32,000 nucleotides of DNA, taken from assembly GCF_002075285.3 (NCBI RefSeq), contig NZ_CP021983.2:2850001-2882000 (forward strand), given 5' to 3'. A model generated the notes under the pieces. It was not told the origin of the DNA. It did not search any database and saw only the letters and a list, made by a program, of their open reading frames with translations. The stretch comes from Halomicronema hongdechloris C2206 (GTDB taxonomy: Bacteria > Cyanobacteriota > Cyanobacteriia > Phormidesmidales > Phormidesmidaceae). The translations under genes and the position numbers were made by a program. Positions 1,657-30,186 of the stretch are shown one piece after another. The first letter of the stretch is position 1. Every line of letters starts with the position of its first letter.

Positions 1657-2238
1657 ATGATGTCTCTGACTCTGGACCTTCAATCGGCGGACATTGAATT
1701 GAGTGATGAGCAGTTTTATCGGCTCTGTCAGGCGAACCGCGATTTACGGCTAGAGCGCACTGCGGCAGGACAGTTGATCGTTATGCCGCCCACAGGATGG
1801 GAAACCGGGAATCGGACCTCAAGATTGGTTCAGCGGCTAGGTAACTGGGCTGATGTGGATGGAACAGGGATCGGGTTTGACTCTATCTACAGGCTTTCGA
1901 TTACCAAACAGGGCGTCCGATCGCCCGATGCCGCTTGGGTGAAACGAGACCGGCTGGAGGCCCTGAATCCTGACCCAGACAAGTTTTTGCCGCTCTACCC
2001 TGACTTTGTGATTGAGCTGCAGTCCGCCAGCGACCAGCTTACGGATGGGCAGGCCAAGATGCAGGAATATCTGGAGAATGGTCTCCAGCTAGGCTGGCTG
2101 ATTAATCCCCAGGACCAACAGGTAGAAATTTATCGGGGCAAGTGCGCAGTGGAGGTGTTGCGATCGCCGACCGAGGTTTCTGGCGAACAGGTCTTGTCTG
2201 GTTTTGTCCTATCGCTGAACGGCATTTTAAGTTCCTGA
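1657..2238 (+). CDS. Uma2 family (DUF820) PD-(D/E)XK-type endonuclease
   Basis: ORF 1639-2238. Motifs: LERTAAGQLIVMPPTGWETGNRTSRL, RSPDAAWV, PDFVIELQSASD, KMQEYLENGLQLGWLINPQDQQVEIYR. The ATG at 1657 is the likelier start. Confidence 0.85.
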   Translation: MMSLTLDLQSADIELSDEQFYRLCQANRDLRLERTAAGQLIVMPPTGWETGNRTSRLVQRLGNWADVDGTGIGFDSIYRLSITKQGVRSPDAAWVKRDRLEALNPDPDKFLPLYPDFVIELQSASDQLTDGQAKMQEYLENGLQLGWLINPQDQQVEIYRGKCAVEVLRSPTEVSGEQVLSGFVLSLNGILSS

Positions 2239-2261
2239 GATTCCCAACGGTAAGCTACGAT

Positions 2262-2354
2262 TTAAGCTTGTCCTGAACACAACAGGCTGGGACCTGGAAT
2301 CACCTCTATGCGCTCAACCAGGTCGGGAATCAGGCTGGCGAGCCGTTCGTCACT
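2262..2354 (-). pseudogene. Possible relic of a TonB-dependent receptor plug domain
   Basis: The minus-strand translation SDERLASLIPDLVERIEVIPGPSLLCSGQA* resembles the plug motif of the three receptors in this window (NIERIEVIKGPASVL, NVERVEVLKGPASIL, NIERIEILKGFSSLL). It is bounded by stops on both sides. Confidence 0.35.
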
Positions 2355-2556
2355 ACATTAACAGACACACTGTTGATGAAAACGCCGACAGGTTATCCGT
2401 GCAGGCTGGGAGAGCGAGGCGATCGCCCAAGCTGGTCAATCCCGGTACTTCGGACATGAGGAGGTCCTGGCGGTCTCAAACCGGGCGAGGTTACCGCTCC
2501 ATCGGGGTTTAACCAACAAAACTGCCATCCTGTTGCCATCTGATGCTCAAGCAATT

Positions 2557-3921
2557 CTACGACGCAGCTGTGTGATGATCGGGAATGATGCGTTCTACCT
2601 GACGTAAGGGGCGATAGGCATATCCTATTAGCCCGGCGAGCAGGCCCAAGCAGGAAAATAGAGTATATTGAACGGCCATTCCTGCCCCTTCGCCCGTGCC
2701 AAATATATTCCCTAAGACCCCTGCTAATATCCCAGTCGGCTGCATGGCTGGCTCAAACCCATAGTCGGCCAAAGGGCCTGCGATCGCCAGCCCGATTGGC
2801 GAGGTGATCTGGGCCAGCAGGTAGCGAGAGGTAAATACTCGCCCCTGCACCGCTGGGTCCACCTTCGATAACCAAATTGCCTGATTAGAACTGCCAATAA
2901 ACACCCCAAAAAATGTTTTTGCGAACCCTGCCATTGCCCATATCTATGGCAGATGTCCTAAGCCAATCACAATTCCGCCGAGTCTAGACAAGATAGACCC
3001 CAGCAACAAGCCGTGAATTCGACGCCGAAAACCACCCCAAACACTCAGAAATATTGCCCCACTGAGGCCGCCAATTCCACTCGCCGCTTCAACCGTTGCC
3101 AGCACCGCAGTATTATCACCACTGCGCGCTAGAATCATGGCCGGGAAGATCGCACCGCCGATATTGCCGACTAAATTGGCACTGAGTAGAAATACCAGGA
3201 TGGCCAATAAACTAGGATACTTGAGAATATAGCGAAACCCAAAAGTCAACTGGGGCCATATTCTCTGCTGGTTCGGAGTGTCTATTTTGTTGGCTGACTG
3301 GCTCCCTTGAGGTTGGGGAACGGTCACCAGTGACAGGGTACTCATTGCCAGCAGAAAAGTGATGAGATCGAGCACTAAAATCCCTGTCAGCCCAATCACG
3401 TAATAGAGGGCTCCTCCTAGGGCGGGGGCCAAAATATTGGAACCGTATCCCTTGGCTGATTCTAAGGCAGAGGCTCGCGTGTAGTGTTGTGGGGGAACAA
3501 TGGTCGCCATGGAAGCCGATAGGGTCATCCATTGCAGATACCCAAATAAACCACTAACAGCCCCAGCCAGATAAAGATGCCAGATGGCGGGGGTATCGAT
3601 CAGCAGCAACAACAGAATGACGACTGTAGAGGCTGCCGCCACGATGTCTCCCAACAGCATCAATTGTTTGCGAGGGAATCGGTCAATAATAATGCCGGAA
3701 AACAGACTGGCAATAATGGGCGGCGTCGCCGTAAAAAATATTAGTAAAGATAAGGGCGTGGCTTGTCCGGTGGCTTCCCATACCCAAATGGTGAGGGCAA
3801 AGGTGGCTATCCTCGACCCCAAAATAGAGGCAGTTTGCCCAATCCAAATGATTAGGAAAGTTCGCAGGCTGGTGGGCGGAGTTACGATGGGTCTTCCTCC
3901 TCTAGCAAATAGCGAAATAGA
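2557..3921 (-). pseudogene. MFS transporter (EntS/siderophore-exporter-like) interrupted by an in-frame TAG
   Basis: ORFs 2944-3822 (292 aa) and 2557-2934 (125 aa) are in the same frame and read ...GLGHLP*IWAMAGFAKTFF..., with the TAG at 2944-2946. The conserved N-terminus [26 protein letters not shown] extends upstream of the tracked TTG. No ATG or GTG lies before the stop at 3922-3924. Confidence 0.75.
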
Positions 3922-4862
3922 TCATCAACGACGAGATTGGCTGCTACTGGTCCTGACCCAATCCAGTGTTCACCACTGACCTGATAAACGTTTCCCTGTT
4001 TCACAGCCTCTAACTGTGACCATAGGGGATCGGCTTGAAGCTGTTTGATCGCAGTTTGGGCATCCTGTTTGGATTCGAAATTGTCACCGTCAGTCCACAG
4101 AAAGATGACATCCCCGTCAGCTAAGTGCAGTTGCTCTTTGCTGATTCGCTGAACAGGTTGCCCCCCGCGCTGGCTGGGAGGACGAGATAAGCCAGCATCT
4201 AGCAGAATCGTGCCGGCAAAGATATCTTCCTGATAAAGCTCAAAGTAGCCAGGATAAACCCGCACCATTGAAACTTCCAGTTGGTTCAGACGATCGCCCA
4301 TTCTTTCTTTAAAGGTCGCTAGGCGATCGCGATATTCGTCCATGACGGCTTCTACTCTTTCTGAGCGATTGATAGCTTGTCCCACTGAGGCAAATATCTC
4401 TTTCCAATCACCACTGGTGTCAAACTCAAACAAAACAGTGGGCGCGATTTGTGACGCTTGAGTATAAATCTCTTCCAGAGAAGTCGAGCCTAAAATCAGG
4501 TCTGGTTGCAGTGCCAATACTTTTTCTAAATCAGGACGCCGATAACCAATGCTCTCGGTACCTTGCAGTTGCTCTTTCAGGTAAGCCTCTGGGCGAGCCA
4601 CAGCGCCGATGGGAGGAGTATCGATTGCTAACAGCGCTTCGGTTGTGAAAGTTCCCAAGGTGATCATACGTTGAGGCGTCTCTGGGACTTGCGTTGTTCC
4701 CATAGCGTGCTCAACGGTGCGGGTTAGTTGGTCGGTCTGCACATTTGCCGAGGTGTATCGCACCGAGTTATTAGAGGAAGTACCATTGCAGGCAGCAACG
4801 AACCCTATGACCACTAAAGCGAAGCCAATGAATTGCCTTTGATACCGCTTTGCATTGAGCAT
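3882..4862 (-). CDS. Iron-siderophore ABC transporter substrate-binding lipoprotein (FecB/FhuD-like), copy 1
   Basis: ORF 3882-4943. The likelier start is the ATG at 4860-4862, giving [25 protein letters not shown] with a lipobox. The C-terminus [42 protein letters not shown] is shared with the two other copies. Confidence 0.85.
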
Positions 4863-5067
4863 CTGCCGACAGCGATGCCCAAAAATTCCTGCCGCTGTCA
4901 ATAGTTTTCTGAGTTGCTTAAACACTGGAAAAAGCGTTGGCATAGGGACGATGAACCTGTTTTGATAGCGACACTTACAGCTGTAGTCAAGCCGGAATAT
5001 GAGCTAGGTGCTCAAAGGTTTTATACCTAGACCAAGCTTTGACCACAGTTCTGGTTCAGAAGCCTCT

Positions 5068-7656
5068 TCAAAATTCCACTGAAAAAGTACCAATCACCGT
5101 AAAAGGAATTCCCGGATCAAGCGAAAAGCGCCCAAAACCAGGAGACTCCACATAGTCAATATCGAAGAGGTTTTTGAAGTTCAGGGCGGCTTCCCAGTTA
5201 TCCCTTTGATAAGAAATCCTGGCGTCAACGCGGGCATAGCTAGGCAGTTCAAAGTTATTATCCAGGTTTCCTTCCCGATCCCCGACAAAAAAGACACCTG
5301 CACCCAGTCCTAGCCCCTGCAAGTCACCCTGTTGAAATTCATAGGTCGTCCAAAGACTGGCCGCATTTCTGGGAACGCCCTGGAGTTCATTGCCTTCCTG
5401 GTCGCTGCCATTATCCTCGGTAATCTCAGTATGAGTATGAGCGTAAGAGGCGATGATTCGCCAGCCATCGCTGATTTCGCCAGCAATATCCAGCTCAATG
5501 CCTCGACTTCTTTGTTCCCCAATGGCCCGTTGCAGCCCCGCAGGAGGGCCCGGGACACCCACTGCAATATTGCTTTTAGTAATGTTGAACGCAGCCAGGT
5601 TAGCCGAAAGCCGCCCCTCCAACAGCTCACCCCTAAGCCCCACTTCATACTGGGTGCCGCGCTCGGGGGGCAGAATGCCGCCCTGACCATCGCCGCCATT
5701 AGGCACAAACGAGCGACTAAAGCTGGCGTACAGGGATAGGGGTTCAATCGGTTGGTACACCAGACCAATCCGGGGGCTAAAAGCCGTATCGTCTTGAGTT
5801 TCAGTGGTGTCACTCAAGCGATTTTCGTTATTTTGACTCACCAGGTCAAATCGACCCCCGATGAGAAGTTTGAGATTATCTGTAAAGGCAATCAGGTCTT
5901 GGAGATAAATGCCCAGGGAATCTGTCCGGTTATTGATATCAACAGCTGTAAAGTTAAGCTCGTCTCTGCTAGGTGTACCATCGTCATAAACCGGATCAAA
6001 GATATTGATTGTTGTCACGCCAAAACTATCATCAGTGCTTCGACCCTGTCGATCTTCAACCTCGCGATTGAGATCAAAACCAAAAAGTACCTCATGTCCA
6101 ACGGTCCCAGTTTGAAAATCACCAACAAGATTAGTCTGCAAACCGTAGCTTGTCTCGATTGCGTCGTTAGAAAACACAAATCGCTGTAACTCTCCAGCAT
6201 CGCTAATACTGAAAGGCTGGTTTTCAATATTTAATCGGTCTCCCCGCAAAAATTGGAAGCGATTACGCAGTTCTAAGTTGTCGTTAAATTCATGCTCTAG
6301 TTCATAGCTGGCAATGAGCTGCGTCGATTCATTAAAATCGTCTAGCTCGTTGACAATGCGATCGAAGGGAATGTCAGCAATGCCCTCACCAATAGAAACT
6401 AGTCCTTGATCAAAGGGGCGTTCATCATCGGTATAGGAGAATTCCAGGGTGAGATTGGTGCGATCGCCAATATCCCAGGTCACAACCGGTGAAACAAAGA
6501 ATCGTTCGATATCGCGATTAAAATCCCGAAACCCTTCTTGTCTTTCATAAAGGGCATTGAGCCGATAGCGTACTGTTCTATCAGCATTCAATGGGCCAGA
6601 AGCATCAATCGAGGGTTCGATGAAACCAAAACTGCCCACACGCGGTTCCAAGGCAAAAAATGGTTCTGCAGTCGGTCGTTCGGGGACTAAGTTGATGACA
6701 CCGCCCGGTTCTAGACGCCCAAACAAGATGGAAGCAGGGCCTTTGAGCACCTCTACCCTCTCCACGTTGGCGGTTTCTCTAAGTCTTGTTACTTCGCCAT
6801 CTCGAAATCCGTTACGTAGGAAGGTTCTTTGCTGAAACCCACGAATGTTAAAGCTGTCAAATGTGCCACTGAATGTATCTGACTCCACGACACCACTCAC
6901 GTTACGGACAATTTCTTGCAAATCGGTGGCTTGTTGATCTTCAATTACGGCACGGGGCACCACCTGAATCGACTGCGGAATGTCGCGCAGGGGGGTATCG
7001 GTGCGGGTGGCCGTCGTGGCCGTTGGAGCGTTGTACCGCTCATCCGGCTCCCCAGTTACCACGATTTGGATGGCGTCATCCGCATCGCCGACTCGGGCAA
7101 TTCCCGGCACCACACTTAACACCAGATTTCCTGCTTCTGTGCCTACCTGAGTCTCTGGCGGCGCATCGGTTCCCGTAATCGATACCCGCACCCGATTGTC
7201 CGGTAGCCCTGTTACGCTCACCAAAGCAATGCCCTCAACCGGGTTGGCGGCCTGAAACTCATCCCCCTCTGCCAGGGCCAGGGCTGCATTGGGAATCTCG
7301 GCAATCAGCGCATTCCCCACCACGGAGGTTTCAGGCTCCGCGATGGAACCGGTGGCTGCTAGCATCAGCTGCAGGCCGTTCTCTGTTTCGGTGATCTGAA
7401 CATCGGTAATCTGAGTCAGGGCTTGAGCTATGTCAGCCGAGGGTGCAGGCGATCGCTCCTGAGCCTCAATCTGGCTCATCCATGCCGCGACCGTGGTGGC
7501 TGGTTGGGGTTCCTCGCTACGATCAAGATCTTCTACCGGAACGACCTCAGTCTCAGCAACGGTGGATGGTTCCAAAGAGTCTGCCTGGGCGGCCGACGCC
7601 AGCACCACCGAAAACACACCCGTGAGCCAAAATAATCTCTGCAGTTGACGCATCAT
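5068..7656 (-). CDS. TonB-dependent siderophore receptor with N-terminal AMIN-type extension, copy 1
   Basis: 862-aa ORF. Signal peptide MMRQLQRLFWLTGVFSVVLASAAQA. AMIN-like block ITDVQITETENGLQLMLAATG...GNALIAEIPNAALALAEGDEF...VRVSITGTDAPPE. Plug motif VERVEVLKGPASILFG. Terminal beta-strand TVIGTFSVEF. Confidence 0.92.
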   Translation of the reverse strand: MMRQLQRLFWLTGVFSVVLASAAQADSLEPSTVAETEVVPVEDLDRSEEPQPATTVAAWMSQIEAQERSPAPSADIAQALTQITDVQITETENGLQLMLAATGSIAEPETSVVGNALIAEIPNAALALAEGDEFQAANPVEGIALVSVTGLPDNRVRVSITGTDAPPETQVGTEAGNLVLSVVPGIARVGDADDAIQIVVTGEPDERYNAPTATTATRTDTPLRDIPQSIQVVPRAVIEDQQATDLQEIVRNVSGVVESDTFSGTFDSFNIRGFQQRTFLRNGFRDGEVTRLRETANVERVEVLKGPASILFGRLEPGGVINLVPERPTAEPFFALEPRVGSFGFIEPSIDASGPLNADRTVRYRLNALYERQEGFRDFNRDIERFFVSPVVTWDIGDRTNLTLEFSYTDDERPFDQGLVSIGEGIADIPFDRIVNELDDFNESTQLIASYELEHEFNDNLELRNRFQFLRGDRLNIENQPFSISDAGELQRFVFSNDAIETSYGLQTNLVGDFQTGTVGHEVLFGFDLNREVEDRQGRSTDDSFGVTTINIFDPVYDDGTPSRDELNFTAVDINNRTDSLGIYLQDLIAFTDNLKLLIGGRFDLVSQNNENRLSDTTETQDDTAFSPRIGLVYQPIEPLSLYASFSRSFVPNGGDGQGGILPPERGTQYEVGLRGELLEGRLSANLAAFNITKSNIAVGVPGPPAGLQRAIGEQRSRGIELDIAGEISDGWRIIASYAHTHTEITEDNGSDQEGNELQGVPRNAASLWTTYEFQQGDLQGLGLGAGVFFVGDREGNLDNNFELPSYARVDARISYQRDNWEAALNFKNLFDIDYVESPGFGRFSLDPGIPFTVIGTFSVEF

Positions 7657-7740
7657 TCACTCCCACACCTAAATCGGAACACTTCCCAAGAAGCTTACGG
7701 GAAGGCGGTGAGGGATAGAAGGCCGGTGAGAACGGCAGCA

Positions 7741-7774
7741 GGAGCTTTTTTGAACGGTTTCCGGAGTTTTTGTG
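7741..7774 (-). promoter_or_regulatory. Phased direct repeat (candidate AraC-type operator) upstream of receptor 1
   Basis: GGAGCTTTTTTGA (7741-7753) and CGGAGTTTTTGTG (7762-7774) have GGAG cores 22 bp apart. They lie 85-118 bp upstream of the start at 7656. The same arrangement occurs at three other loci. Confidence 0.45.
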
Positions 7775-7853
7775 GTTTAGCCGTCCGTATGATGCATCGA
7801 GTCTGTGTTTTGACGCTAAGGTAAATAAAAGATTGACCGTTTTCTCTCTTCTA

Positions 7854-8084
7854 ATGGATTGGCAAGAGCGCATTGTCGTCAACCCTGACATCCTAGTCGG
7901 TAAGCCCGTTATTCGCGGTACTCGACTAGCTGTCGAATTCATCATCGACTTACTAGCGGAGGGTTGGTCAGAGCCAGAAGTACTCCGAAACTACCCCGGC
8001 ATAACTCGAGAAGATATTCAAGCCTGCCTTCGCTATGCCAGCGAACTTCTCAAAGCTGAGCGGGTTTATCCTTTGTCTGTATAA
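7854..8084 (+). CDS. DUF433 domain protein (antitoxin-like partner of DUF5615)
   Basis: MDWQERIVVNPDILVGKPVIRGTRLAVEFIIDLLAEGWSEPEVLRNYPGITREDIQACLRYA. The ATG is at 7854. The stop lies 2 nt before the next gene. Confidence 0.8.
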   Translation: MDWQERIVVNPDILVGKPVIRGTRLAVEFIIDLLAEGWSEPEVLRNYPGITREDIQACLRYASELLKAERVYPLSV

Positions 8085-8086
8085 CG

Positions 8087-8455
8087 GTGAGGTTCCTGGC
8101 TAACGAAAATTTTCCAGGCGATGCCGTTGAAGCGCTTCGCAAGCAAGGGCACGATGTCCGATGGATTCGTACCGACGCTCCAGGCAGCTCCGATTCTGAA
8201 GTTTTATCAATGGCTCAAGCCGAAGATCGCATTCTTTTGACTTTTGATCGAGACTTTGGTGAGCTAGCGTTTCGTCTCGGACTTCCGGCAACGACTGGCA
8301 TCGTACTCTTTCGCTTTAGGATGACCTCTGCTCAACAGGTTGCAAGCGTGGTGACACAGGCCATATCTCTACGCACCGACTGGATTGGCCATTTCAGCGT
8401 TGTTGAGATAGACCGGGTCCGCATGCGTGCCCTACCAACAGACAAACAGTCTTAG
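8087..8455 (+). CDS. DUF5615 family PIN-like protein (toxin-like)
   Basis: The start is a GTG at 8087. Sequence: MRFLANENFPGDAVEALRKQGHDVRWIRTDAPGSSDSEVLSMAQAEDRILLTFDRDFGELAFR. Confidence 0.8.
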   Translation: MRFLANENFPGDAVEALRKQGHDVRWIRTDAPGSSDSEVLSMAQAEDRILLTFDRDFGELAFRLGLPATTGIVLFRFRMTSAQQVASVVTQAISLRTDWIGHFSVVEIDRVRMRALPTDKQS

Positions 8456-8507
8456 TTTGTTATGGTTAAAACCACCCGAGAGTTGTGATACAGAACCCTG
8501 TGGGAAA

Positions 8508-9536
8508 CTAACTTATCTGCCAAAAATGCCGCTGACGTTTGCGGTAGACGCTGGGATTGATGCCGAATTTCTTGCGAAAGGCCAGGGCAAAGTGGCTGCG
8601 GTTGACGTATCCTACAGCCTGGGCCGCCTCAGTAATCGTCATCTCACCAGCTGTCAATAGCTGACGAGCCCTCTCCATACGGCAATCCTGTAGATAACCA
8701 AAGACGGTGGTGCCAAACACCTGGCGAAATCCAACCTTGAGTTTGCAGTCATTAATGCCTATCAGACGAGCCAGGTCAATTAGCGACGGCGGATCATCGA
8801 GTCGGGCCACCAGTAGCTCTTTGGCGTAGTGAATGCGCTCAATATCGTCGGGTTTCAACCCCTTAGCAGACGGGGTGGAGCCATCCATCTCGGGTAGTTG
8901 AGCCAGCTGTAGTGCCATCAGTTCCCACACCTTACCCTCTAGGTATATGCGCTGGGTCAATCCTTGAAATGGGCACTGCAGTATGTGTTGAACGATCTGC
9001 TGCATGGCTGAGCTGGTGTTGTATATCTGCAAATGATAGAGCCGATCGGGGGGTTTTATTAGGTAGTTTAGAGACTGGGAAAGTTCCTTAGAACAGTCCG
9101 TCGCCCATTGCCCCAACAGTGCTGGCTCGATATGGATGTTGACCGTAAACTTATGGAGATCCGCCACCTCATAGCCTGCTTCCTCAGGAGCCATACCGCT
9201 GCCACAAAAGCAATGCTGCCCAACCTTCACTGGGTATGACTCGGAAGGCGCAGCGCCCATCAACACGTAGTTCAGTTCCAGGGGATGTTCTCGCTCATCG
9301 CTGGTGATAATAAGATCATCATGAAGACGATAGTCTGCGATCGCCAGCACGATTCCGTCTCGAATTCGAATCTTTCGGTAATACCCTGCCCCCAGCTGCT
9401 TGGGATATTTCCAGGTGATGTCATACTCGTCGGTGTTGCGGTTAATATCCTGATGGGGCTGGCTCGCAGCCGCATTCGTTTCCTGGATGTGTCGCACTAA
9501 CTGCCAATAGTCTTGCTGTGAGAGGGTAATCGTCAT
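8508..9536 (-). CDS. AraC family transcriptional regulator (PchR-like), copy 1
   Basis: 342 aa. N-terminal sensing domain (WKYPKQLGAGYYRKIRIRDGIVLAIADYRLHDDL). C-terminal double HTH (LIDLARLIGINDCKLKVGFRQVFGTTVFGYLQDCRMERARQLL...AAQAVGYVNRSHFALAFRKKFGINP). Confidence 0.92.
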   Translation of the reverse strand: MTITLSQQDYWQLVRHIQETNAAASQPHQDINRNTDEYDITWKYPKQLGAGYYRKIRIRDGIVLAIADYRLHDDLIITSDEREHPLELNYVLMGAAPSESYPVKVGQHCFCGSGMAPEEAGYEVADLHKFTVNIHIEPALLGQWATDCSKELSQSLNYLIKPPDRLYHLQIYNTSSAMQQIVQHILQCPFQGLTQRIYLEGKVWELMALQLAQLPEMDGSTPSAKGLKPDDIERIHYAKELLVARLDDPPSLIDLARLIGINDCKLKVGFRQVFGTTVFGYLQDCRMERARQLLTAGEMTITEAAQAVGYVNRSHFALAFRKKFGINPSVYRKRQRHFWQIS

Positions 9537-9595: not shown

Positions 9596-10016
9596 TGATG
9601 GCCAGACGCACCGCGTTGCCGTCTGTACTCACCGCGACTGCCGCGATCCCCTCAGCGGGCTGACTGTGGAAGCGCTCTTCCCCCGCCGGTAGTGATAATA
9701 CGGTGTTGGGAATGGTGACAATTTGGGCGTTACCTAGGGTTTCCAGAGTGGGAGCTGGCAATACGCCATTGGCTTCGATGGTCAGGGTCAGTCCTGCGTC
9801 TGTCGGAGTCAGGCGCAGGTGGGTAATGGTGGCCGGCTCGCTCTCTAGTTGGGCTAGCCAGTCGGCAGCAGTCGGAGCCTTGTCAGGGTCGGTTGTGTCG
9901 GCAGCCACAGGTGCCACGAGGCCACCAGTCATACAGAGGAGGCCAGCAATGCCCAGGACACGGCCCAGGGTCAGGGAATATTTCAGGGAACTCACACCCA
10001 CACGCTGAGTCATCAT
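9591..10016 (-). CDS. Stand-alone AMIN-domain protein with signal peptide, probably the 5' remnant of a TonB-dependent receptor
   Basis: MMTQRVGVSSLKYSLTLGRVLGIAGLLCMTGGLVAPVAA is followed by ITHLRLTPTDAGLTLTIEANG...GNAQIVTIPNTVLSLPAGEERF...AVRLAIN*. This aligns with the first ~190 aa of the three receptors. It stops where the plug domain should begin. Confidence 0.7.
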   Translation of the reverse strand: MMTQRVGVSSLKYSLTLGRVLGIAGLLCMTGGLVAPVAADTTDPDKAPTAADWLAQLESEPATITHLRLTPTDAGLTLTIEANGVLPAPTLETLGNAQIVTIPNTVLSLPAGEERFHSQPAEGIAAVAVSTDGNAVRLAIN

Positions 10017-10113
10017 AAGCTGTTGCAAGTTGTTCTCAGAAGCTAGGGCATAGCATAGGGGATAGGGTGCGATGGTCGCAGACCGGCCTTCGGCCATCGC
10101 AACTTCCCCATCC

Positions 10114-10147
10114 CGGAATTTTTTTATCCCCAGCCGGAATCACTGCC
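10114..10147 (-). promoter_or_regulatory. Phased direct repeat (candidate operator) upstream of the AMIN remnant; distal copy degenerate
   Basis: CGGAATTTTTTTAT (10114-10127) and CGGAATCACTGCC (10135-10147) have GGAA cores 21 bp apart. The second copy keeps only CCGGAAT and overlaps the stop codon (10140-10142) of the AraC relic. Confidence 0.35.
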
Positions 10148-10700: not shown

Positions 10701-10718
10701 ATCAGTACGGTGATTCCC

Positions 10719-19886: not shown

Positions 19887-19889
19887 TTT

Positions 19890-19920: not shown

Positions 19921-19965
19921 ATTTTGTGGGGCATCCTAACATTAATCCTTGACCTGCCTTCTCTC

Positions 19966-20514: not shown

Positions 20515-20515
20515 T

Positions 20516-20545: not shown

Positions 20546-20571
20546 AAGATCCGCGATCGCACTAAATTAAA

Positions 20572-23090: not shown

Positions 23091-23183
23091 AACTCCTTTT
23101 GAGTGATTAGTGATTGTTCATTAGATTGACTGTTAGTCAAGTGACTATGGGTAAAAAACAACAAACAACATTACATCCTTGAT

Positions 23184-24206
23184 CTATTCCTTTTCCCCAA
23201 CCAGGTACTTAAACAAGTCGTCGACAACAGCATTGGCAGCCAGTGGACCATCCCCAATCCAATAGCCTGGAACCTCGTAAACCTTACCTTGTTTCACCAC
23301 CGCTAGTTGCGACCAGAGCGGATCTGCTTTCAGCCTCTTCAAAGCACTGTTTGCTTGCTGAGCTTGCTCAGCATTATAGCCATAGGTCCACACAAACATG
23401 GCATCCCCATCTAGATCGTGGATTCGTTCCTTGCTGATGTCCTGTTGACCTCCCATCTGATTCTGGTATGCCGGACGAGATACCCCAGCATCTGCCAAGA
23501 TAGTTCCACAAAATGAGTCTTTGAGATAGACTACGATCTGATTTGGATAAATACGGACTATTGAAACCTCAAGCTGATTCAGGCGCTCGCCCATCTGATC
23601 TTTAAACGCTTCGAGTCGAGCATAGTAGTCAGTTATCATCTGCTTTGCCACGTCTATCCTATCCAGTGTCTCCGCATACTGCATAAGCCTTTCTTTCCAT
23701 TTATCACTATGTTCAAATGGGAAAATAACTGTTGGGGCAATTTTCGATAAAGTGTCATAATTTTCCTTAAGCCCATCTCGGTAGCTCAAGATAAAATCGG
23801 GCTTGAGTTGCAGAATCTTTTCTAGATTCGGGATATTCACACTACCAACATTTTCAATCCCCTTAGTTTTGTCCTTTAAATGGGGAAAATCAGCCTCTAA
23901 CTCGTCGCTACCGACTGGTTTTATACCCAAAGACAAGACGTAATCTAATCCTCCTAGAACAACGACTCGTTGTAGATTATTGGGAACGCACGTTTCCCCC
24001 ATCGCATGTTTAACAATATGGCAGTCCGATACTGGTAATGAGGGTTGATGGGAAGAAGAGTTTTGGGAAAACGTTCCACTGCAAGCTGAGATGAGAAGAA
24101 ACATAGCTATTGCTGACAAAACATGTCGCAGCCTTCCAGGAACATTACAACCATTTCCTGAAAGTATTTTTCTCAAATTGCCAATACTTGGTGTCTGATC
24201 AATCAT
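23184..24206 (-). CDS. Iron-siderophore ABC transporter substrate-binding lipoprotein, copy 3
   Basis: AIAMFLLISACSG (lipobox). The C-terminus is DPLWSQLAVVKQGKVYEVPGYWIGDGPLAANAVVDDLFKYLVGEKE. Confidence 0.9.
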   Translation of the reverse strand: MIDQTPSIGNLRKILSGNGCNVPGRLRHVLSAIAMFLLISACSGTFSQNSSSHQPSLPVSDCHIVKHAMGETCVPNNLQRVVVLGGLDYVLSLGIKPVGSDELEADFPHLKDKTKGIENVGSVNIPNLEKILQLKPDFILSYRDGLKENYDTLSKIAPTVIFPFEHSDKWKERLMQYAETLDRIDVAKQMITDYYARLEAFKDQMGERLNQLEVSIVRIYPNQIVVYLKDSFCGTILADAGVSRPAYQNQMGGQQDISKERIHDLDGDAMFVWTYGYNAEQAQQANSALKRLKADPLWSQLAVVKQGKVYEVPGYWIGDGPLAANAVVDDLFKYLVGEKE

Positions 24207-24262
24207 TCGTTAGTCCATCAACTTTTCATTTGCTCTTCACTTTACTTGGAACTAACGTCGGA

Positions 24263-26890
24263 TTAAAACCTGACTGAAACAGAACCAGTAACCGACAAAG
24301 GCTCTCCTTGAGGCAGGCGCGCTCTATCTGAAGCAGATACAATAAATCTCTCGTCAAAGAGATTATCAATCGTTAATCTAAATGTCCAATTTTCTACTTG
24401 GTAAGCTGCCCCCAAATCAACTCGTACAAAACTAGGTACTGTGAAACTATTGGCAGTATCTCCAGCTCGTTCGCCAACATACACTAAACCTGCCCCTAAA
24501 CTTAAGCCATTTAAGGCACCTTGAGTAAACTCATACTCGCCGTAAAGTCCGAGACTGTTTCGAGGGCTATTGAGGAAACGGTTACCTTCTAGATCTGGTT
24601 CACCGTCGATAATTTCTGCTTCAAATAGGTTAGTGTAGGCTAGGATTACCCTAAAGTTATCGGTGATTTGACCAGCAATGTCTAATTCTACCCCTCGGCT
24701 ACGCACATCTCCAACTGGAATGACGAAGTTGGGATCAATTGGATCAGTCTCTGCAATATTGGTTTGAGTCAAGTCAAACAGGGCTGTGGTGAGACTTAGT
24801 CGATTATCGAATAGATTAACCTTGCCACCAATCTCGAATTGCGTAGCTCGCCTAGGCTCAATAAATTCACCGTCTATAGTTTCACCAAACTGAGGTTCGG
24901 TTGATTGGCTGAAACTGCCATAAATAGAAGCCGAATCACTCAACATGTAGAGTAAACCAACACTAGGTGCGACAAAATCGTCGTCTTGAAAGACCTCGTC
25001 ACTAATGCCATCTTTATTTTCAAACTGGCCATAACGCAGCCCAGCCAATAAACGGAAACGCCCCAATGTTATGAAGTCCTGAATATAGATGCCCCAATCG
25101 TTACTAATGTTATTAATTGGTATAGGGTCACCTAAAGGCGGTAGCGGGAAGTCAAAGGTGGGATTAGCAACGTCAATGATTGGGAAGTCAGACCCAAGCC
25201 TAAGTGGGAAGTCAGTCTCTGATCTGTTATACTCAGCGCCTGCTAGTAACTGGTGTTCAGAAGCTCCAATTTCAAAATCCCCTCTAATTTCACCACGTAA
25301 ATTAGCCTGATTAAAATCATCTAAAATCTGACCCACAAACAGCGGCAGTTCATTGTTGGCGTTAACATTGATAGTTATTGCAGAAGGATCTAATTCTCGG
25401 CGAGTGTCGAAATATTGCCCACTTAGGGCAATTGACCATTGTTCACTAATAGGTTGATCAAAGTAGGCAGCAACTCGAAAGTGGCGATTAATATCGCTAT
25501 TACGAGGGTCAGTGAAACTGCGATCAAAGAAGAATTCTCCATCAAAGAATTTAGCACCAGTTGTACCATCTTTTTCTAGCCGAAAATATTCAGCTTCGAG
25601 GGTGAGAGATCCTCCTCCTCCGGTTAACCAGGTCAATGCAGGAGCAACAAAAATTCGATCATCTTCAATATTGGGGACGAAAGAGTTAGACTCTTGGAAT
25701 GCGAGATTGAGCCGATACAGTAGATTCTGATTTTGAGTTAGTGGTCCTGTCAAGTCCACTTCTCCACGATAGAAATCAAAGCTCCCAGCTTCAAAACTAA
25801 TATCGTAACTAGGGGTATCTTCAGGCCTCTCAGTGATGTAATTGACGACACCACCAGGTGTTCCTGGACCGAAGAGTAGAGAAGAAAATCCCTTCAGAAT
25901 TTCAATGCGTTCAATATTAGCTAGATCTCTGACCAAGAAGCGAGGGTTATCCCGTAAACCATTCACGAAGGTTTGTCGTTGGACATCAAATCCACGAATT
26001 GTAAATTGAGGAGTGTTTCCCGAAGCACCTTCCTGCCCTCCTTGAATCACACCGCTAATATAGGGGGCTAATTCTTCCCCTCGTCTGGCGGCTCGATCTT
26101 GAATTAGCTCTTCAGTAATGACCCCAATGGAGGCTGGCGTTTCTAGTAGGGGAATGTTTAGTCTAGTGCCTGTAGTAGCATTGGACGTACGGTAGCCCTC
26201 TTGCTCCCCCGTCACCACAATCTCGATCGCATCATCAGCATCATCGACCTGGGCGATGCCTGGCACGACAGTCCAGACCAAATTACCGGCTTCGGCACTC
26301 ACGGTCGCTTCCGGTGGCGCATCGGTGCCCATAATCGCTACTTGAATGCGATCCTGGCCCACAGCCGTCACTGACACCCGGGCAATGCCTGCAGCTGGGT
26401 CGGTTGCCTGAAACTCGTCTCCCTCTGGCAGGGCCAGCACCGCATTGGGAATCTCTGCCACGAGGGCATTGCCTACGGTTTCTGTGGTCGGAACAGACAA
26501 ATCTCCGTCAGCGGTCTCCAATATTACTTGCAAACCAGTCTCGCTGCTTTCAACCCGCACGCCGGTAATTTCGATGATCGCCGCTTCAATTTGAGCGACC
26601 CACTCGGTAACAGTGGTGGCGGGGGGTGGGGTAGAGGGGTGTTGGCGGAGCCTGCCCGAAGGGCTTAGGGGTGATGGGGTGGTGGGGTGATGGGGTGATG
26701 GGGTGGTGGGTATTTGAGAGGTGCCCCTCTCGTTGGTATTTGACTCGCCCACTTGCCCACTTGCCCGCTCGCCTAGGTCATTTCCTGTGGCGGGTTGTGC
26801 CCAACCGAGGGCCACTAGCGTCGTCAGGCTCAGGGTGCTGGCTAGGGCATAGGAACACTGGACTAGGCCTGTTATGGAATGCGATCGCAT
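24263..26890 (-). CDS. TonB-dependent siderophore receptor with AMIN-type extension, copy 3 (divergent barrel, Pro-rich insert)
   Basis: 875 aa. ITGVRVESSETGLQVILETADG...GNALVAEIPNAVLALPEGDEF...IQVAIMGTDAPPE. Plug motif IERIEILKGFSSLLFG. Terminal strand SVTGSVSVRF. The low-complexity block PTTPSPHHPTTPSPLSPSGRLRQHPSTPPP is encoded by the G-rich repeat at 26637-26710. Confidence 0.92.
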   Translation of the reverse strand: MRSHSITGLVQCSYALASTLSLTTLVALGWAQPATGNDLGERASGQVGESNTNERGTSQIPTTPSPHHPTTPSPLSPSGRLRQHPSTPPPATTVTEWVAQIEAAIIEITGVRVESSETGLQVILETADGDLSVPTTETVGNALVAEIPNAVLALPEGDEFQATDPAAGIARVSVTAVGQDRIQVAIMGTDAPPEATVSAEAGNLVWTVVPGIAQVDDADDAIEIVVTGEQEGYRTSNATTGTRLNIPLLETPASIGVITEELIQDRAARRGEELAPYISGVIQGGQEGASGNTPQFTIRGFDVQRQTFVNGLRDNPRFLVRDLANIERIEILKGFSSLLFGPGTPGGVVNYITERPEDTPSYDISFEAGSFDFYRGEVDLTGPLTQNQNLLYRLNLAFQESNSFVPNIEDDRIFVAPALTWLTGGGGSLTLEAEYFRLEKDGTTGAKFFDGEFFFDRSFTDPRNSDINRHFRVAAYFDQPISEQWSIALSGQYFDTRRELDPSAITINVNANNELPLFVGQILDDFNQANLRGEIRGDFEIGASEHQLLAGAEYNRSETDFPLRLGSDFPIIDVANPTFDFPLPPLGDPIPINNISNDWGIYIQDFITLGRFRLLAGLRYGQFENKDGISDEVFQDDDFVAPSVGLLYMLSDSASIYGSFSQSTEPQFGETIDGEFIEPRRATQFEIGGKVNLFDNRLSLTTALFDLTQTNIAETDPIDPNFVIPVGDVRSRGVELDIAGQITDNFRVILAYTNLFEAEIIDGEPDLEGNRFLNSPRNSLGLYGEYEFTQGALNGLSLGAGLVYVGERAGDTANSFTVPSFVRVDLGAAYQVENWTFRLTIDNLFDERFIVSASDRARLPQGEPLSVTGSVSVRF

Positions 26891-26921
26891 AATTCAACCT
26901 CCTCACACCGTTGGCAAATCA

Positions 26922-26940
26922 AATGCAAATAACTTGCATT
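26922..26940. promoter_or_regulatory. Perfect 7-5-7 palindrome between the putative -10 and the start of receptor 3
   Basis: AATGCAA-ataac-TTGCATT lies 32-50 bp upstream of the ATG (26890). On the coding strand it sits just downstream of a TATTAT -10 candidate (plus-strand 26953-26958). The GAGGAGG Shine-Dalgarno is at 26898-26904. Confidence 0.45.
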
Positions 26941-26989
26941 AATGTGGGGACAATAATATCGACATTCAGCCGTTGCTGCGAATCCCAGA

Positions 26990-27025
26990 CGGAATTTTTG
27001 TGAATCCAGGCGGGAGTTTTTGGTG
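26990..27025 (-). promoter_or_regulatory. Phased direct repeat (candidate AraC-type operator) upstream of receptor 3
   Basis: CGGAATTTTTGTG (26990-27002) and GGGAGTTTTTGGTG (27012-27025) have GGA cores 22 bp apart. They lie 100-135 bp upstream of the start. Confidence 0.5.
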
Positions 27026-27032
27026 CTGGGGA

Positions 27033-27068
27033 GGACGGAGAGCGGCGGACGGAGAGCGGCGGACGGAA
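27033..27068. repeat. 14-bp tandem repeat GGACGGAGAGCGGC x2.5
   Basis: Read directly: 27033-27046, 27047-27060, and a partial unit at 27061-27068. It is followed by GGGGTGGGGTGATGAG. Confidence 0.9.
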
Positions 27069-27393
27069 AAGGGGGGTGGGGTGATGAGCAACGGGGATTT
27101 ACTCCCATCTGTGGGGTTGGTTGATTAATCGGTGCGATCGCACCGTTGACTGGTTCGGCCCGAGAGGATATTTGGAAAGTACTCTGCAACCTTGCTCCAG
27201 CCTGGATTCTGGCCGACGGAACCATATACTCTAAAACGCCTACCTTACAGGCCGTTCAGCCGCGTTTTCAAATGTCCTCTGAAGGTGCTGCCGAGATCCT
27301 GGAGAGTCCTCAGGTTCTGTCTGGGGAAGCGGTTTGGCCCGGGTTCGAGTGACCCCTAGCGTCGATTTGGTAACATACTGCTGTCTTAAACCA

Positions 27394-27975
27394 TTACTGC
27401 GCCCCGGCTGCAAATAGGGCGCTGGGCGTTAGGTCCAGAGTGCTCAATTGCCGAGAGGGCACTGGCTCTTCCCCCGTGGCGGTGCCCAGTTCAGTATAGG
27501 TGTCACCTTCCAGAGTTAGCACTAATACCGTCTGCGCTTGGGGGTCAACAATCCAGTACTCCGGGATGCCCACATCTTGATATTGCAGGCGTTTGGCCAC
27601 ATAATCCCGCTGCCATTGCAATTCCCCTGGGCTGACGACCTCCACCACCAGCAACGGCGGCGACATGGTCAGCCGAATGGTGTTGCGCTGGGCCAACAGG
27701 GACACATGCTCGTCTCGAATAAGCGTCAAATCTGGGTAGCGATTTTTCGGTTCGCCCCGCACCTCCAACTCTAAGCCATGCCCCCGCACCCGATCGGTTC
27801 CTAGTCGCAGGGCAAAGGTTAAAAATAGTCGATTGGCGATTTGCACATTGCATCCAGACTCTGGTGGCACGGCAATCAATTCTCCATTAAAGAGTTCATA
27901 GAGCCGGTCAGTGCCATCGTCGTAGGCGAGATACTCCTCAAAGGTTTGAAATCGGGCGCTGAGCTGTTGAACCAT
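27394..27975 (-). CDS. Uma2 family endonuclease
   Basis: FEEYLAYDDGTDRLYELFNGELIAVPPESGCNVQIANRL...YPDLTLI...PPLLVVEVVSPGELQWQRDYVAKRLQYQDVGIPEYWIVDPQAQTV. Confidence 0.85.
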   Translation of the reverse strand: MVQQLSARFQTFEEYLAYDDGTDRLYELFNGELIAVPPESGCNVQIANRLFLTFALRLGTDRVRGHGLELEVRGEPKNRYPDLTLIRDEHVSLLAQRNTIRLTMSPPLLVVEVVSPGELQWQRDYVAKRLQYQDVGIPEYWIVDPQAQTVLVLTLEGDTYTELGTATGEEPVPSRQLSTLDLTPSALFAAGAQ

Positions 27976-28020
27976 GATCTGTATTGGGCAGGGGATTGCT
28001 TTAAACCTACTTTAGATGAG

Positions 28021-28230
28021 TGATGGGGTGTTGGGGTGATGGGGTGTTGGCGGAGCCTGCGCGGAGCGCATAGGGGTGATGGGGTGATGGGGTGATGGGG
28101 TGATGGGCAAGCTCTTCACCCTTCGACTGCGCTCAGGGCAAGCTCTTCACCCTTCACTCTTCACCCTTCACTTTCCACTCCCCCACTCCCCCACTCCCCC
28201 ACTCCCCCACTCCCTCACTCCCTCACTCCC
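28021..28230. repeat. Composite short-tandem-repeat block
   Basis: The block contains GGGGTGAT octamers with a hairpin core, a GGGCAAGCTCTTCACCCTTC duplication, and CACTCCCC octamers. GGGGTGAT x4 is at 28073-28104. The core GGGGTGTTGGCGGAGCCTGCGCGGAGCGCATAGGGGTGATGGGGTG starts at 28041. GGGCAAGCTCTTCACCCTTC occurs at about 28105-28124 and 28136-28155. (CACTCCCC)n/(CACTCCCT)n runs over 28176-28230. The block ends at the AraC copy 3 stop codon. Confidence 0.9.
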
Positions 28231-28235
28231 CACCC

Positions 28236-29195
28236 TCATCCCTGCCGCAAGTACTGCCCCGGATTGATGCCAAACTTCTTGCGAAAGGCGCGGGCGAAGG
28301 AGCTACGGCTGGCGAAGCCGACGGTGTGGGCCACGCCGGTGACGGTTTTGGTCCCCTGCTGCAGCAGTTGGCGGGCATAGTCTAGCCGGTAGTGGTGCAG
28401 GTAGCCGAAGACGGTAGTGCCGAAGACCTGACGAAAGCCCCGTTTCAGGGCACATTCATTCAGGTGAATCTGCCGGGCCAGTTCCGCCAGGGTCGGGGGG
28501 TTATTGAAGTGCCGCAGCAGAATATCGCGGGCCTGGTGAATGCGCTCGATGTCGGCGGGTTTGAGGTTAATTGAGGGGCCAGGGGGCTGCTGCTGGCTCA
28601 GTGCATCATGCAGGCACAGGGTCAGCAGTTCCCAGGCTTTACTTTCCAGATAGAGCTGCTTAATCACCCCAGTGTAAGGGCAATGCAATATCTGGTGCAG
28701 CACCATCTGCATGGGGGCAGTCATGGTGCCAAACTGACTGTAGTAAAGTTGCTGGGGCGAGCGCAGCAGCTCCGGTAGGGGCAGCGCCCGAGAGCCGAGC
28801 CACTGGCTCAAGCGCTCTGGGTCGATGTGCAGGCTGAGCCAGGCGTGGGGATGCTCGGCCGGCTTAATCGAGGTACCCCCCGGGGCGAGACCACTGCCGT
28901 AGAGGCCATAGCACTTGGGGCCCAGGGGTGGATCGGTGTAGGCTCCTTCTAAGTAAAAGGTGCACTCCACCGGATGGGGACGCTCTTCAGCAGTGGTCAT
29001 CACCTGATGCCGTAGTTGGTAGCGGGCGATGTCCATCTGGACCCCGTCTCGCAGCTCAATCGAGTGTTGATACCCCTGGCCGAGACTCTCCGGATAGTGC
29101 CATTTCTCTTCAAAGTCTCCTGTCGCCCCTGTTGCGGCGGTGGCGCTGGCTTGAATCAGCTCGTGGTAGTCGCGCTGGGAAAGGGTCAGGGCCAT
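28236..29195 (-). CDS. AraC family transcriptional regulator (PchR-like), copy 3
   Basis: 319 aa. WHYPESLGQGYQHSIELRDGVQMDIARYQL...MQMVLHQILHCPYTGVIKQLYLESKAWELL...LAELARQIHLNECALKRGFRQVFGTTVFGYLHHYRLDYARQLL...SSFARAFRKKFGINP. Confidence 0.92.
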   Translation of the reverse strand: MALTLSQRDYHELIQASATAATGATGDFEEKWHYPESLGQGYQHSIELRDGVQMDIARYQLRHQVMTTAEERPHPVECTFYLEGAYTDPPLGPKCYGLYGSGLAPGGTSIKPAEHPHAWLSLHIDPERLSQWLGSRALPLPELLRSPQQLYYSQFGTMTAPMQMVLHQILHCPYTGVIKQLYLESKAWELLTLCLHDALSQQQPPGPSINLKPADIERIHQARDILLRHFNNPPTLAELARQIHLNECALKRGFRQVFGTTVFGYLHHYRLDYARQLLQQGTKTVTGVAHTVGFASRSSFARAFRKKFGINPGQYLRQG

Positions 29196-29250
29196 GGAAG
29201 AGAGGCTGCGATCGCACCAGTTCGATAACCTATCCTTAAAACAATACCTT

Positions 29251-29270
29251 AATTGAGATCAACTCTCAAT
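29251..29270. promoter_or_regulatory. 7-5-7 palindrome (Fur-box geometry) upstream of AraC copy 3
   Basis: A-ATTGAGA-tcaac-TCTCAAT has perfect 7-bp arms. It lies 56-75 bp upstream of the ATG at 29195. Confidence 0.45.
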
Positions 29271-29451
29271 ACTTCGTCACGTTACCTTGGCCAGCCATGC
29301 CTCACGGCCAGATAACCGGGATGCGATCGCGCTGCGAGTAACTATCATCGCGCCGTGAGTTAGTAAATCTTTGGGTCGGAGGTCCTCAACCCGGAACCGT
29401 CTGACCCAGAATATCTGGCAGATTAACAGTTGGTTGACTGGGTGTTGAGAT

Positions 29452-30186
29452 CTAAGTGTCTGACAGTTCTTCCGGATCGATGCCGCGAGCTTTGAGCATA
29501 GCCGCTAACCGTTCTGCCCGTTGGCGTTCCTGCTCGGCTCGCTGGCGCTCTTGCTCGGCTCGCTGGCGTTCTTGCTCGGCTTTTTCATCTCCCGTCAGCA
29601 ACATATTTCCTTGAGCATCGCACCAGCGCAGCCAGGTATCGTGCCGCCCTTCAAATTCTCCCTGCCAGAGGGTGAGGCCAATCCCCATCGGTTCTAGCCA
29701 GTGTTCCGACAGTTCGGCATAATGCAGCCCCCGCAGTTCATAGAGGTATAGCGGGTTTTCCCCCAACTGCCTGGCTGGGTCATAGACGACGTAGTAGCCC
29801 ACTCGCATTTGAGCATAGGTTTGGAGCTTACTGGTCAGCTCATTGCCAACCCGGTTGGAGACAACTTCCAGCACCACTTCCGGCGGTTTACCAAAATTCC
29901 ACACCAGATAGCAACGGTTGGGCTTCTCCCACCACGCTTCGGGTACCTGTACGTCTAAACTGATGAAGACATCGGGCACCACTGCGGGCTGGTTCACCGC
30001 GTGATAGATGCCAACGTTTGCTTCAGCGAGAAAAGTAGAGCCCCTCAGAGAGCTGTAGAGACTACTGACCAGCAACCGCTGCTGCTTGGCTGAGGCGAAA
30101 TTGTCCACCGGCGTATCATCCTCAGTGATGAGTAGATTAGCATCCGGAAATGTGACCTCATCGGTCGTGGCGAGTGGATTGCTCAT
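29452..30186 (-). CDS. Uma2 family endonuclease with C-terminal EQERQRA-repeat (coiled-coil-like) tail
   Basis: MSNPLATTDEVTFPDANLLITEDDTPVDNFASAKQQRLL...VVPDVFISLDV...PPEVVLEVVSN...YAQMRVGYYVVYDP..., followed by EQERQRAEQERQRAEQERQRAERLAAMLKARGIDPEEL. The ATG is at 30184-30186. Confidence 0.85.
   Translation of the reverse strand: MSNPLATTDEVTFPDANLLITEDDTPVDNFASAKQQRLLVSSLYSSLRGSTFLAEANVGIYHAVNQPAVVPDVFISLDVQVPEAWWEKPNRCYLVWNFGKPPEVVLEVVSNRVGNELTSKLQTYAQMRVGYYVVYDPARQLGENPLYLYELRGLHYAELSEHWLEPMGIGLTLWQGEFEGRHDTWLRWCDAQGNMLLTGDEKAEQERQRAEQERQRAEQERQRAERLAAMLKARGIDPEELSDT
29529..29591. repeat. 21-bp tandem repeat x3 inside the Uma2 coding sequence
   Basis: cgttggcgttcctgctcggct / cgctggcgctcttgctcggct / cgctggcgttcttgctcggct. 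This encodes the EQERQRA heptads on the minus strand. Confidence 0.9.

Follow-up and report, generated by a model that had tools for sequence, protein, structure and literature searches.

Uma2-family loci in a siderophore-uptake island of Halomicronema hongdechloris and the turnover of genes in the spacer between AraC regulators and TonB-dependent receptors

Uma2 loci of the island

We analysed a 32,000 nucleotide (nt) stretch of the Halomicronema hongdechloris C2206 genome (NZ_CP021983.2, positions 2,850,001 to 2,882,000; hereafter the window). The organism is a filamentous cyanobacterium resembling Leptolyngbya, and the stretch is a siderophore-uptake island that carries six loci of the Uma2 (DUF820, COG4636) family. 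These are labelled U1 to U6 from left to right. The island holds three paralogous minus-strand cassettes, A, B and C, in each of which a gene for a TonB-dependent receptor (TBDR) with AMIN, Plug and barrel domains is followed by one for a FecB-like binding protein (Pfam); of these, A and C are accompanied by AraC-family regulators. A 32-nt direct-repeat box, GGAnTTTT N12-14 GGAGTTTT, was found by a regular-expression scan (repeat family D8) upstream of every TBDR gene and of an ABC exporter, and is probably, by inference, the binding site of PchR-like AraC regulators.

The nearest species representative found was Vasconcelosia minhoensis LEGE 07310 (locus L001, Uma2 copies V1 to V4), whose receptor orthologue is 68% identical. 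The closest relative is an organism from Joint Genome Institute (JGI) metagenomes (L024, with L025 and L026). Further comparisons were made with L041 (GCA_964644215.1), with L044, the siderophore locus of another organism carrying the long-type Uma2 copies M1 to M3, and with L051, a Nodosilinea metagenome-assembled genome (MAG) carrying the copy N1, while L042/L043 and Leptolyngbya sp. Heron Island J, which are more distant cyanobacteria, served as outgroups.

The Pfam model of the family (PF05685; COG4636) has a gathering cutoff of 27 bits, and all the loci but U3 (five of six) score 42-140 bits against it. U1 (1657 to 2238, plus strand; open reading frame (ORF) also from 1639) is intact and encodes a protein of 193 amino acids (aa) with a PD-EXX-K active site (Pfam E 8e-41). 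Its start lies 52 nt from the box at 1573 to 1604 and it is divergent from the ABC exporter. U2 (11330 to 11866, minus strand; ORF to 11881), likewise intact, encodes 178 aa with a PD-EXK-K variant (Pfam E 9e-36) and is a singleton at 90% identity among 15 billion proteins. Back to back with it stands U3 (11934 to 12330, plus strand), a long-type Uma2 relic with three in-frame stops and its C-terminal half lost, which is convergent with an N-terminal fragment of an AraC gene (12378 to 12653; tblastn and translation). U3 scores 22.3 bits, under the Pfam cutoff; by BLASTP it is 53-66% identical over 111-129 aa to the long-type proteins V2, M2 and M3 of relatives (E 1e-39 to 3e-51), with 63-66% to M2 and M3, both of them Pfam-positive.

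U4 (16656 to 17244, plus strand) carries one frameshift near 16840-16860, so that Pfam returns two half-matches in different frames, the N-terminal part covering profile positions 1-59 and the C-terminal part 63-164. Since, once rejoined, the protein can be aligned over residues 1-181 with an intact Uma2 protein of a Leptolyngbya plasmid (50% identity), the gene was broken by a single frameshift. It is divergent from TBDR B and just upstream of it, with its start 104 nt from the box at 16520 to 16551. U5 (27394 to 27975, minus strand; 193 aa; Pfam E 4e-30) is intact and lies between the AraC and TBDR genes of cassette C, on the strand of both neighbours. U6 (29452 to 30186, minus strand; ORF to 30273; Pfam E 9e-13) is an intact long-type gene of 244 aa. 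The long-type proteins (U6, M1-M3, V2, V3 and N1) have a conserved C-terminal extension beyond the Pfam model, in which 'GLGLWQG...WLRW.D..G' is followed by a coiled coil and then by 'LGIDP'. The number of QERQRAE heptads in this extension varies, with three in U6 and six in its orthologue M1 (L044 834 to 1631).

An initial annotation, made from the DNA alone, had listed these same six loci, with U3 as decayed and U4 as frameshifted, and had held them to be different subtypes and not recent duplicates. All of this was borne out: the loci were recovered by Pfam, BLASTP and a six-frame scan, the damage was evident in the in-frame stops and the split Pfam matches, and by BLASTP only U1 and U2 are detectable as similar among the window copies, at 30% identity. 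No seventh copy was found in the window by the six-frame HMM/phmmer scan. In an alignment of nine sequences (U1, U2, U5, rejoined U4 and five copies from relatives, with U6 excluded), P81, D82, E112 and K128 in U5 numbering are invariant, and U6 displays the PD...E...K pattern too. At the sequence level the PD-(D/E)XK fold is supported by the match of U1, over residues 6-187, to the crystal structure 1wdj (PDB, E 5e-26). The six loci are genuine members of Uma2/COG4636, a branch of the PD-(D/E)XK nucleases, and belong to at least five old subfamilies.

The PADLOC model PDC-S03 matches U1 (2e-9), U2 (1e-10), U4 (1e-27), U5 (2e-66, nearly full length) and U6 (2e-5). No small ORF with a Pfam hit, which might have been an antitoxin partner, adjoins any of the six copies. 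Carriage of these genes by phages was unsupported, U5 giving two weak matches to viral contigs in IMG/VR and one partial match in a phage collection. In the literature we found no published case of nuclease activity for a Uma2 protein.

Conservation, relocation and selection

Comparison with L024, whose cassette C AraC protein is 88% identical, showed that the block from 23198 to 29330 is collinear, at 85-98% nt identity, with U5 included. The U5 orthologue is present in L024-L026 in synteny between AraC and receptor, at 96% aa identity, and its dS (synonymous divergence) of 0.207 against 0.16-0.20 for the neighbouring genes, together with a dN/dS (ratio of nonsynonymous to synonymous divergence) of 0.085, indicates that U5 was inherited in place under strong selection. 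The initial annotation had put every copy between a cassette boundary and a relic. This describes broadly U1, between the promoter of the ABC exporter and a major facilitator superfamily (MFS) gene with a nonsense codon, U2 and U3, amid AraC, ABC and TBDR relics, U4, and U6, which adjoins a DUF1636 relic, but not U5, which is within a conserved cassette. Synteny with L024 ends at window position 29330, beyond which the window has U6 and L024 an unrelated Uma2 gene of 215 aa on the other strand. Identity to L024 is mosaic, ranging over 60-98% (Suc_Fer-like gene ~60%, FecB 70-86%, receptor 95-98%, AraC 86-94%; sharpest at 22083-24300), and the island must therefore recombine; the sharpness of the mosaic points to a putative replacement of alleles via recombination within the cassette.

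Two other window genes have orthologues that have changed place. In L041 (AraC C 72% aa identical) the AraC-receptor spacer, which in the window holds U5, holds on the opposite strand an orthologue of U1 (76% aa, 82% nt), whose homology to the window comprises the ORF and ~35 nt upstream. The dN/dS of U1 is 0.155. Since the dS of the U1 pair (1.11) equals that of the AraC pair (1.05), this relocation is old and is not a recent transfer. M1, the orthologue of U6 in L044 (81% aa by BLASTP, 85% nt; dN/dS 0.094), stands in a different cassette context, with homology limited to 29452-30268, and is accompanied by two more long-type Uma2 genes, one of them in an AraC-receptor spacer, and by a fragment of a fourth. 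For both relocated orthologues, then, homology is confined to the gene and 35-80 nt upstream. The initial annotation had taken stable synteny of individual copies among relatives as evidence that would speak against its selfish reading; U5 shows such stability, whereas the orthologues of U1 and U6 lie in other contexts.

The orthologous region of Vasconcelosia has four Uma2 genes in 22.5 kb, among them a recent duplicate pair (dS 0.17) and, exactly at the position of U4, an unrelated Uma2; the dN/dS of V2/V3 is 0.19. At L001 3584-7867 a long-type Uma2 unit consisting of ~280 nt of upstream sequence and the ORF occurs twice, at 89% protein identity. The upstream part is present a third time, though incomplete, at 5294-5686, and a PemK-like gene lies between the copies; this is a recent local amplification. 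The Nodosilinea MAG has another long-type Uma2, N1, in an AraC-receptor spacer, and a U5-type gene (65% aa) is found on a conjugative Nostoc plasmid. Across the intact copies tested dN/dS is 0.09-0.19, unlike what is seen in fast-degenerating homing genes.

Occupation of the spacer between regulator and receptor

The boxes of the window are all on the plus strand and lie at 1573 to 1604 (upstream of the ABC exporter), 7741 to 7774 (TBDR A), 16520 to 16551 (TBDR B; kept in Vasconcelosia at L001 9853-9885) and 26991 to 27022 (TBDR C; kept in L024, L041 and L042). Elsewhere the box was also recognised at L001 16007-16039, L024 11901-11932 and L041 1999-2032. The spacer between the AraC and TBDR genes of cassette C has different occupants in different genomes, namely U5 in two, in a third the orthologue of U1 and in a fourth, a relative at 83%, an insertion sequence (IS) fragment with part of an integrase. 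Taking AraC-TBDR spacers together, they contain Uma2 genes of the U5, U1, U4, V4, M3 and N1 lineages, and U1 itself at the box of the ABC exporter brings the number to seven. Six lineages (U1, its L041 orthologue, U4, V4, M3 and N1) are divergent from the regulated gene and start 50-105 nt from the box.

Genes of other kinds are housed there too: two unrelated DUF433/DUF5615 toxin-antitoxin (TA) modules in opposite orientations, and the IS fragment. The DUF433/DUF5615 pairs fill the orthologous AraC A-receptor A spacer in the window (7770 to 8455, plus strand) and in Vasconcelosia (L001 15103-15779). As they are mutually inverted and share only 33-38% identity, while the flanking AraC shares 63%, they appear to be independent occupants of one site. 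Because TA modules and an IS fragment fill the same kind of spacer, a seam position is not specific to Uma2; it would be what any tolerated insertion does.

In the outgroups L042/L043 and Heron Island J the same multi-cassette array is tightly packed, with spacers of 110-150 nt, and in these arrays there are no Uma2, TA or IS genes. In L042 the box begins at the AraC stop codon. Apart from these distant lineages, an empty AraC-receptor spacer was seen only once, in L051. The initial annotation had suggested looking for conserved flanking signatures or target-site features, and inspection of 16 pairs of Uma2 flanks found no shared motif or target-site signature of this kind. No target duplications or co-conversion tracts were seen at the Uma2 loci, and the homology of the relocated orthologues, which in homing would extend into co-converted flanks or point to a target site, ends within 35-80 nt of the ORF.

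Density of Uma2 genes

Six genes within 32 kb of a 5.58-Mb replicon were set against a chance model with assumed genome-wide copy numbers. With 100 copies in the genome 0.03 such clusters are expected, and with 200 copies 1.3. The equivalent regions of four relatives contain 12 further Uma2 copies or relics in ~66 kb, a density that would amount to ~1000 copies if extended over a genome and so cannot hold genome-wide, and regional enrichment is therefore likely. Over 110 kb of equivalent loci in other cyanobacteria no Uma2 gene is present; besides L042/L043 and Heron Island J, five further cyanobacterial receptor loci (68 kb) lack it.

Relics and rearrangements

The relics beside U2 and U3 (9597 to 10862, minus strand; tblastn, frame translations and comparison with the L051 layout) comprise an N-terminal TBDR fragment (9597-9968) and the C-terminal half of an AraC gene fused to the tail of an ABC ATPase (10143-10862). 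The best reading is that they are a fourth cassette in decay. Their layout matches that of L051, in which DUF29 is followed by an ABC exporter-AraC-receptor arrangement. U3 and the AraC N-terminal fragment correspond, with an internal deletion, to a convergent AraC/Uma2 (M3) pair of L044, and that deletion has hit U3 itself. The split AraC was also considered as the product of a clean Uma2 insertion, and this was rejected, because its C-terminal half is fused to the ABC ATPase tail and its N-terminal fragment comes from the deleted convergent pair. A further relic, a FecB tail (18373 to 18606; tblastn), abuts the IS cluster. Deletions within former cassettes, together with the IS cluster, account for the relics.

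This bears on the break-inducing role that the initial annotation had considered for Uma2, which the data do not support. Besides the relics being accounted for by deletions and IS activity, three of the six recognisable synteny breakpoints with relatives touch a Uma2 gene, as do ~30% of the local intergenic gaps (a rough hand estimate; binomial p ~0.26), so that by this estimate breakpoints are not enriched at Uma2 beyond its local density.

Other features of the island

Cassette A (3882 to 9536, minus strand) consists of FecB-like (3882-4943), TBDR (5068-7656) and AraC (8508-9536) genes (Pfam) and, apart from the TA module in its spacer, is syntenic with L001. At its end lies the MFS gene (2557-3822, minus strand), in which a single in-frame stop (2944-2946) is followed by a downstream ORF in the same frame, making it either a recent pseudogene or the site of a sequencing error. 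The ABC exporter, a transmembrane domain and an ATPase (1 to 1410, minus strand, running past the left window end; translation, Pfam ABC_membrane and ABC_tran), precedes it, and the island further contains DUF1636 or Suc_Fer-like genes. Cassette B (12691 to 16392, minus strand) comprises FecB-like (12691-13695) and TBDR (13894-16392) genes, the Vasconcelosia orthologue being the one at 68% aa. A metagenome scan found no close orthologue of TBDR B; the best match reaches only 57%, and consequently cassettes A and B have no near relative. Cassette C (22083 to 29195, minus strand) comprises Suc_Fer-like (22083-23090), FecB-like (23184-24206) and TBDR (24263-26890) genes, U5 and AraC (28236-29195).

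A DUF29 gene (10710 to 11159, plus strand; Pfam E 3e-51) lies between the relics and U2, and its ORF overlaps that of the ABC/AraC fusion relic, which is on the opposite strand. It is 81% aa identical to the DUF29 of L051 (8276-8716), which has an equivalent inter-cassette position; DUF29 is another small family expanded in cyanobacteria. Two more TA-type pairs bring the number in the window to three: a PIN/DUF2281 pair beside U4 (17338 to 17980, minus strand; Pfam) and a HEPN/nucleotidyltransferase pair (30499 to 31147, minus strand; Pfam), the latter flanked by DUF1636 relics (30378-30476 and 31183-31398) and a truncated AraC gene (31503-31994). The IS debris extends over 2.8 kb (18713 to 21478, plus strand; Pfam and tblastn) and includes a split DDE_Tnp_1, an IS200-like Y1 and a DDE_Tnp_4 transposase gene. 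No RNA families were found in the window by Rfam.

An 82-nt repeat occurs, at 88% identity, at 26621-26710 and 28026-28107; in it, GGGGTGAT octamers surround a short palindrome rich in GC. As these direct repeats (26621-26702 and 28026-28107) bracket U5 they were considered as Uma2 termini, a candidacy that was rejected because, in comparison with L024, the left copy proved to be a small insertion in its own right, located in the 5' region of TBDR C. Many further tandem arrays of 7-8 nt, resembling short tandemly repeated repetitive (STRR) sequences, occupy the intergenic regions. Short segments related to DUF1636 match Vasconcelosia at 89-90% identity (window 30338-30476 with L001 21304-21442, and window 18325-18386 with L001 21027-21088), while orthologous genes are only ~70% identical. 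The Vasconcelosia copies abut the inverted repeat of an IS element, and their high identity suggests a recent exchange or a conserved element end.

Explanations for the distribution of Uma2

The reading that we hold to be slightly better than an even bet is that the Uma2 genes are autonomous one-gene units, of a solo-toxin or defence type, which accumulate where insertion is tolerated, whereas the rearrangements of the island come from cassette recombination, deletions and IS activity. On this reading the protein would have a toxic or defensive nuclease role, its position would reflect tolerance and not targeting, and Uma2 cleavage would not be the source of the rearrangements. Each unit would consist of the ORF and at most ~80 nt of its own upstream sequence, and would settle, as do TA pairs, DUF29 and IS elements, in the few harmless places of an island that is rich in paralogues and prone to recombination. 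The favoured place may be the junction between the AraC stop codon and the box upstream of the receptor. Once opened, such a spacer could serve as a landing pad, with one occupant replaced by another. Selection on the protein would then preserve individual copies over long times, as would fit a solo toxin, an addiction gene or a phage-defence-type nuclease, and copies would occasionally be relocated, exchanged between genomes (close homologues are found on plasmids) or lost by frameshift or deletion, with the rearrangements supplied by recombination among paralogous cassettes, by deletions and by IS activity.

Several points weigh against this reading. A purely passive model does not predict the divergent, box-proximal geometry that six lineages have in common, and in an empty spacer insertions would be tolerated within a stretch of no more than a few nt, such that repeated independent hits could mean targeting. 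No biochemical or genetic function is on record for any Uma2 protein, all four PDB relatives being uncharacterised, and PDC-S03 is a candidate defence family only. Enrichment of Uma2 in the island over the rest of the genome, moreover, is putative, being extrapolated from the relatives' loci.

An unlikely alternative, although the strongest of those considered, is that Uma2 is a homing or break-inducing nuclease which cleaves a rare site or structure near its own locus on DNA without the gene, is copied in by repair and through its breaks rearranges the island. The catalytic residues of the PD-(D/E)XK site are intact, orthologues have changed place as bare genes, the decay of two copies out of six is what a homing cycle would bring, the synteny break has a different Uma2 in each genome, and the presence of different Uma2 genes in the same narrow junction of orthologous or paralogous cassettes resembles free-standing homing genes of phages. 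However, U5 has been stable across a dS of 0.2 and the intact copies are under strong purifying selection, while the near-equal dS of the U1 pair and of the AraC beside the L041 copy makes movement rare and old. Shared flanking motifs, target duplications and co-conversion tracts are absent from the loci inspected, TA modules and an IS element follow the same positional pattern, and the relics derive from deletions and IS activity, with U3 itself truncated by such a deletion; nor did the rough count of breakpoints show an excess at Uma2 over its local density. Of the selfish or homing-type behaviour proposed in the initial annotation, what stands is that these are autonomous genes which occasionally relocate (the U1 and U6 orthologues elsewhere, the different Uma2 at 29330, two copies of six decayed); the stability of U5 and its purifying selection do not agree with the rest.

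It is doubtful that Uma2 is coupled to the iron regulon, the box-proximal divergent copies being co-expressed with the receptor, for instance as a defence nuclease induced alongside a TBDR that phages can use. TonB-dependent receptors serve as phage receptors in enterobacteria, and both the geometry shared by six independent lineages and the purifying selection on Uma2 would agree with such a coupling. Against it, U5, U2, U6, V1-V3, M1, M2 and L024a do not have this geometry, the shortness of the spacers places any occupant near the box, and two cyanobacterial lineages run the same cassettes without any Uma2. We give similarly little credence to a more specific version, in which Uma2 would be directed to, or selected at, the junction of AraC stop and box and would be read divergently from the shared control region, so that the nuclease is switched on with the TBDR, or in which the box region would be a homing target. 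Chance clustering in a genome very rich in Uma2 is also improbable: ~200 copies in 5.58 Mb would yield one such six-gene cluster, and Gloeobacter has 95 copies in 4.7 Mb with an "erratic" distribution (PMC551604), but the siderophore loci of four relatives are equally dense, at 12 in ~66 kb.

Comparison with known systems

Uma2/COG4636 is among the largest cyanobacterial families of unknown function and makes up as much as 2% of the genes of Gloeobacter. Feder and Bujnicki (2005) described COG4636 as proliferating, horizontally transferred and probably selfish, proposed a homing-like, recombinogenic behaviour, reported no preferred neighbourhood, and defined the PD-EXX-K site, in which Asp and Glu are invariant and the Lys has moved to the following helix (PMC551604). 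Makarova et al. (2009) regarded Uma2 as a likely solo toxin, mostly forming cassettes of paralogues (PMC2701414), a description with which the back-to-back pair of U2 and U3 agrees. Steczkiewicz et al. (2012) listed it among the PD-(D/E)XK families, and Uma2 genes have been found lodged within hox and cmr gene clusters (PMC4963859; PMC11855584).

Free-standing homing genes resemble the window genes in their nuclease fold, in moving as bare genes and in that different genes occur at the same intergenic site. The window Uma2 genes differ in having no intron or intein host, no demonstrated target and no co-conversion, in being under purifying selection and in including at least one stably syntenic copy. 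A precedent at the level of the fold is I-Ssp6803I of Synechocystis, a PD-(D/E)XK homing enzyme. All five Pfam-positive copies match PDC-S03, a candidate single-gene defence system for which we found neither a mention nor an experimental validation in the literature, and the window has no visible phage-related context. The likeness to solo toxins and type II TA modules (Makarova et al. 2009; Kopfmann et al. 2016) lies in small, autonomous genes patchily distributed within or between accessory clusters, and the window Uma2 genes share spacers with DUF433/DUF5615, PIN/DUF2281 and HEPN/MNT pairs; unlike type II TA modules they have no evident partner antitoxin.

The closest counterpart is the Uma2/DUF820/COG4636 family itself (structures 1wdj TT1808, 3ot2, 6okh and 9y1l), with which the window genes share the same HMM, the PD-EXX-K site, a length of ~180-200 aa and the same cyanobacterial expansion as solitary genes or small groups of paralogues. 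We did not find the density of six in 32 kb or the lodging between AraC and TonB-receptor genes described in the literature; nothing essential differs. Existing beliefs on the family are unchanged, and nothing in the data shows that Uma2 causes rearrangements or cuts the surrounding DNA. The idea of selfish, homing or recombinogenic behaviour was put forward in 2005, and the island, whose novelty is modest, is a dense case of something already known. The window and its relatives amount to a compact natural experiment on this 20-year-old selfish hypothesis, with spacers that are empty, that retain a Uma2 gene or that have received another Uma2, a TA module or an IS element, and they yield defined empty-site sequences and orthologue pairs. 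What is added to the known picture of the family is the recurrent occupation and turnover of the AraC-receptor spacer, together with measured selection.

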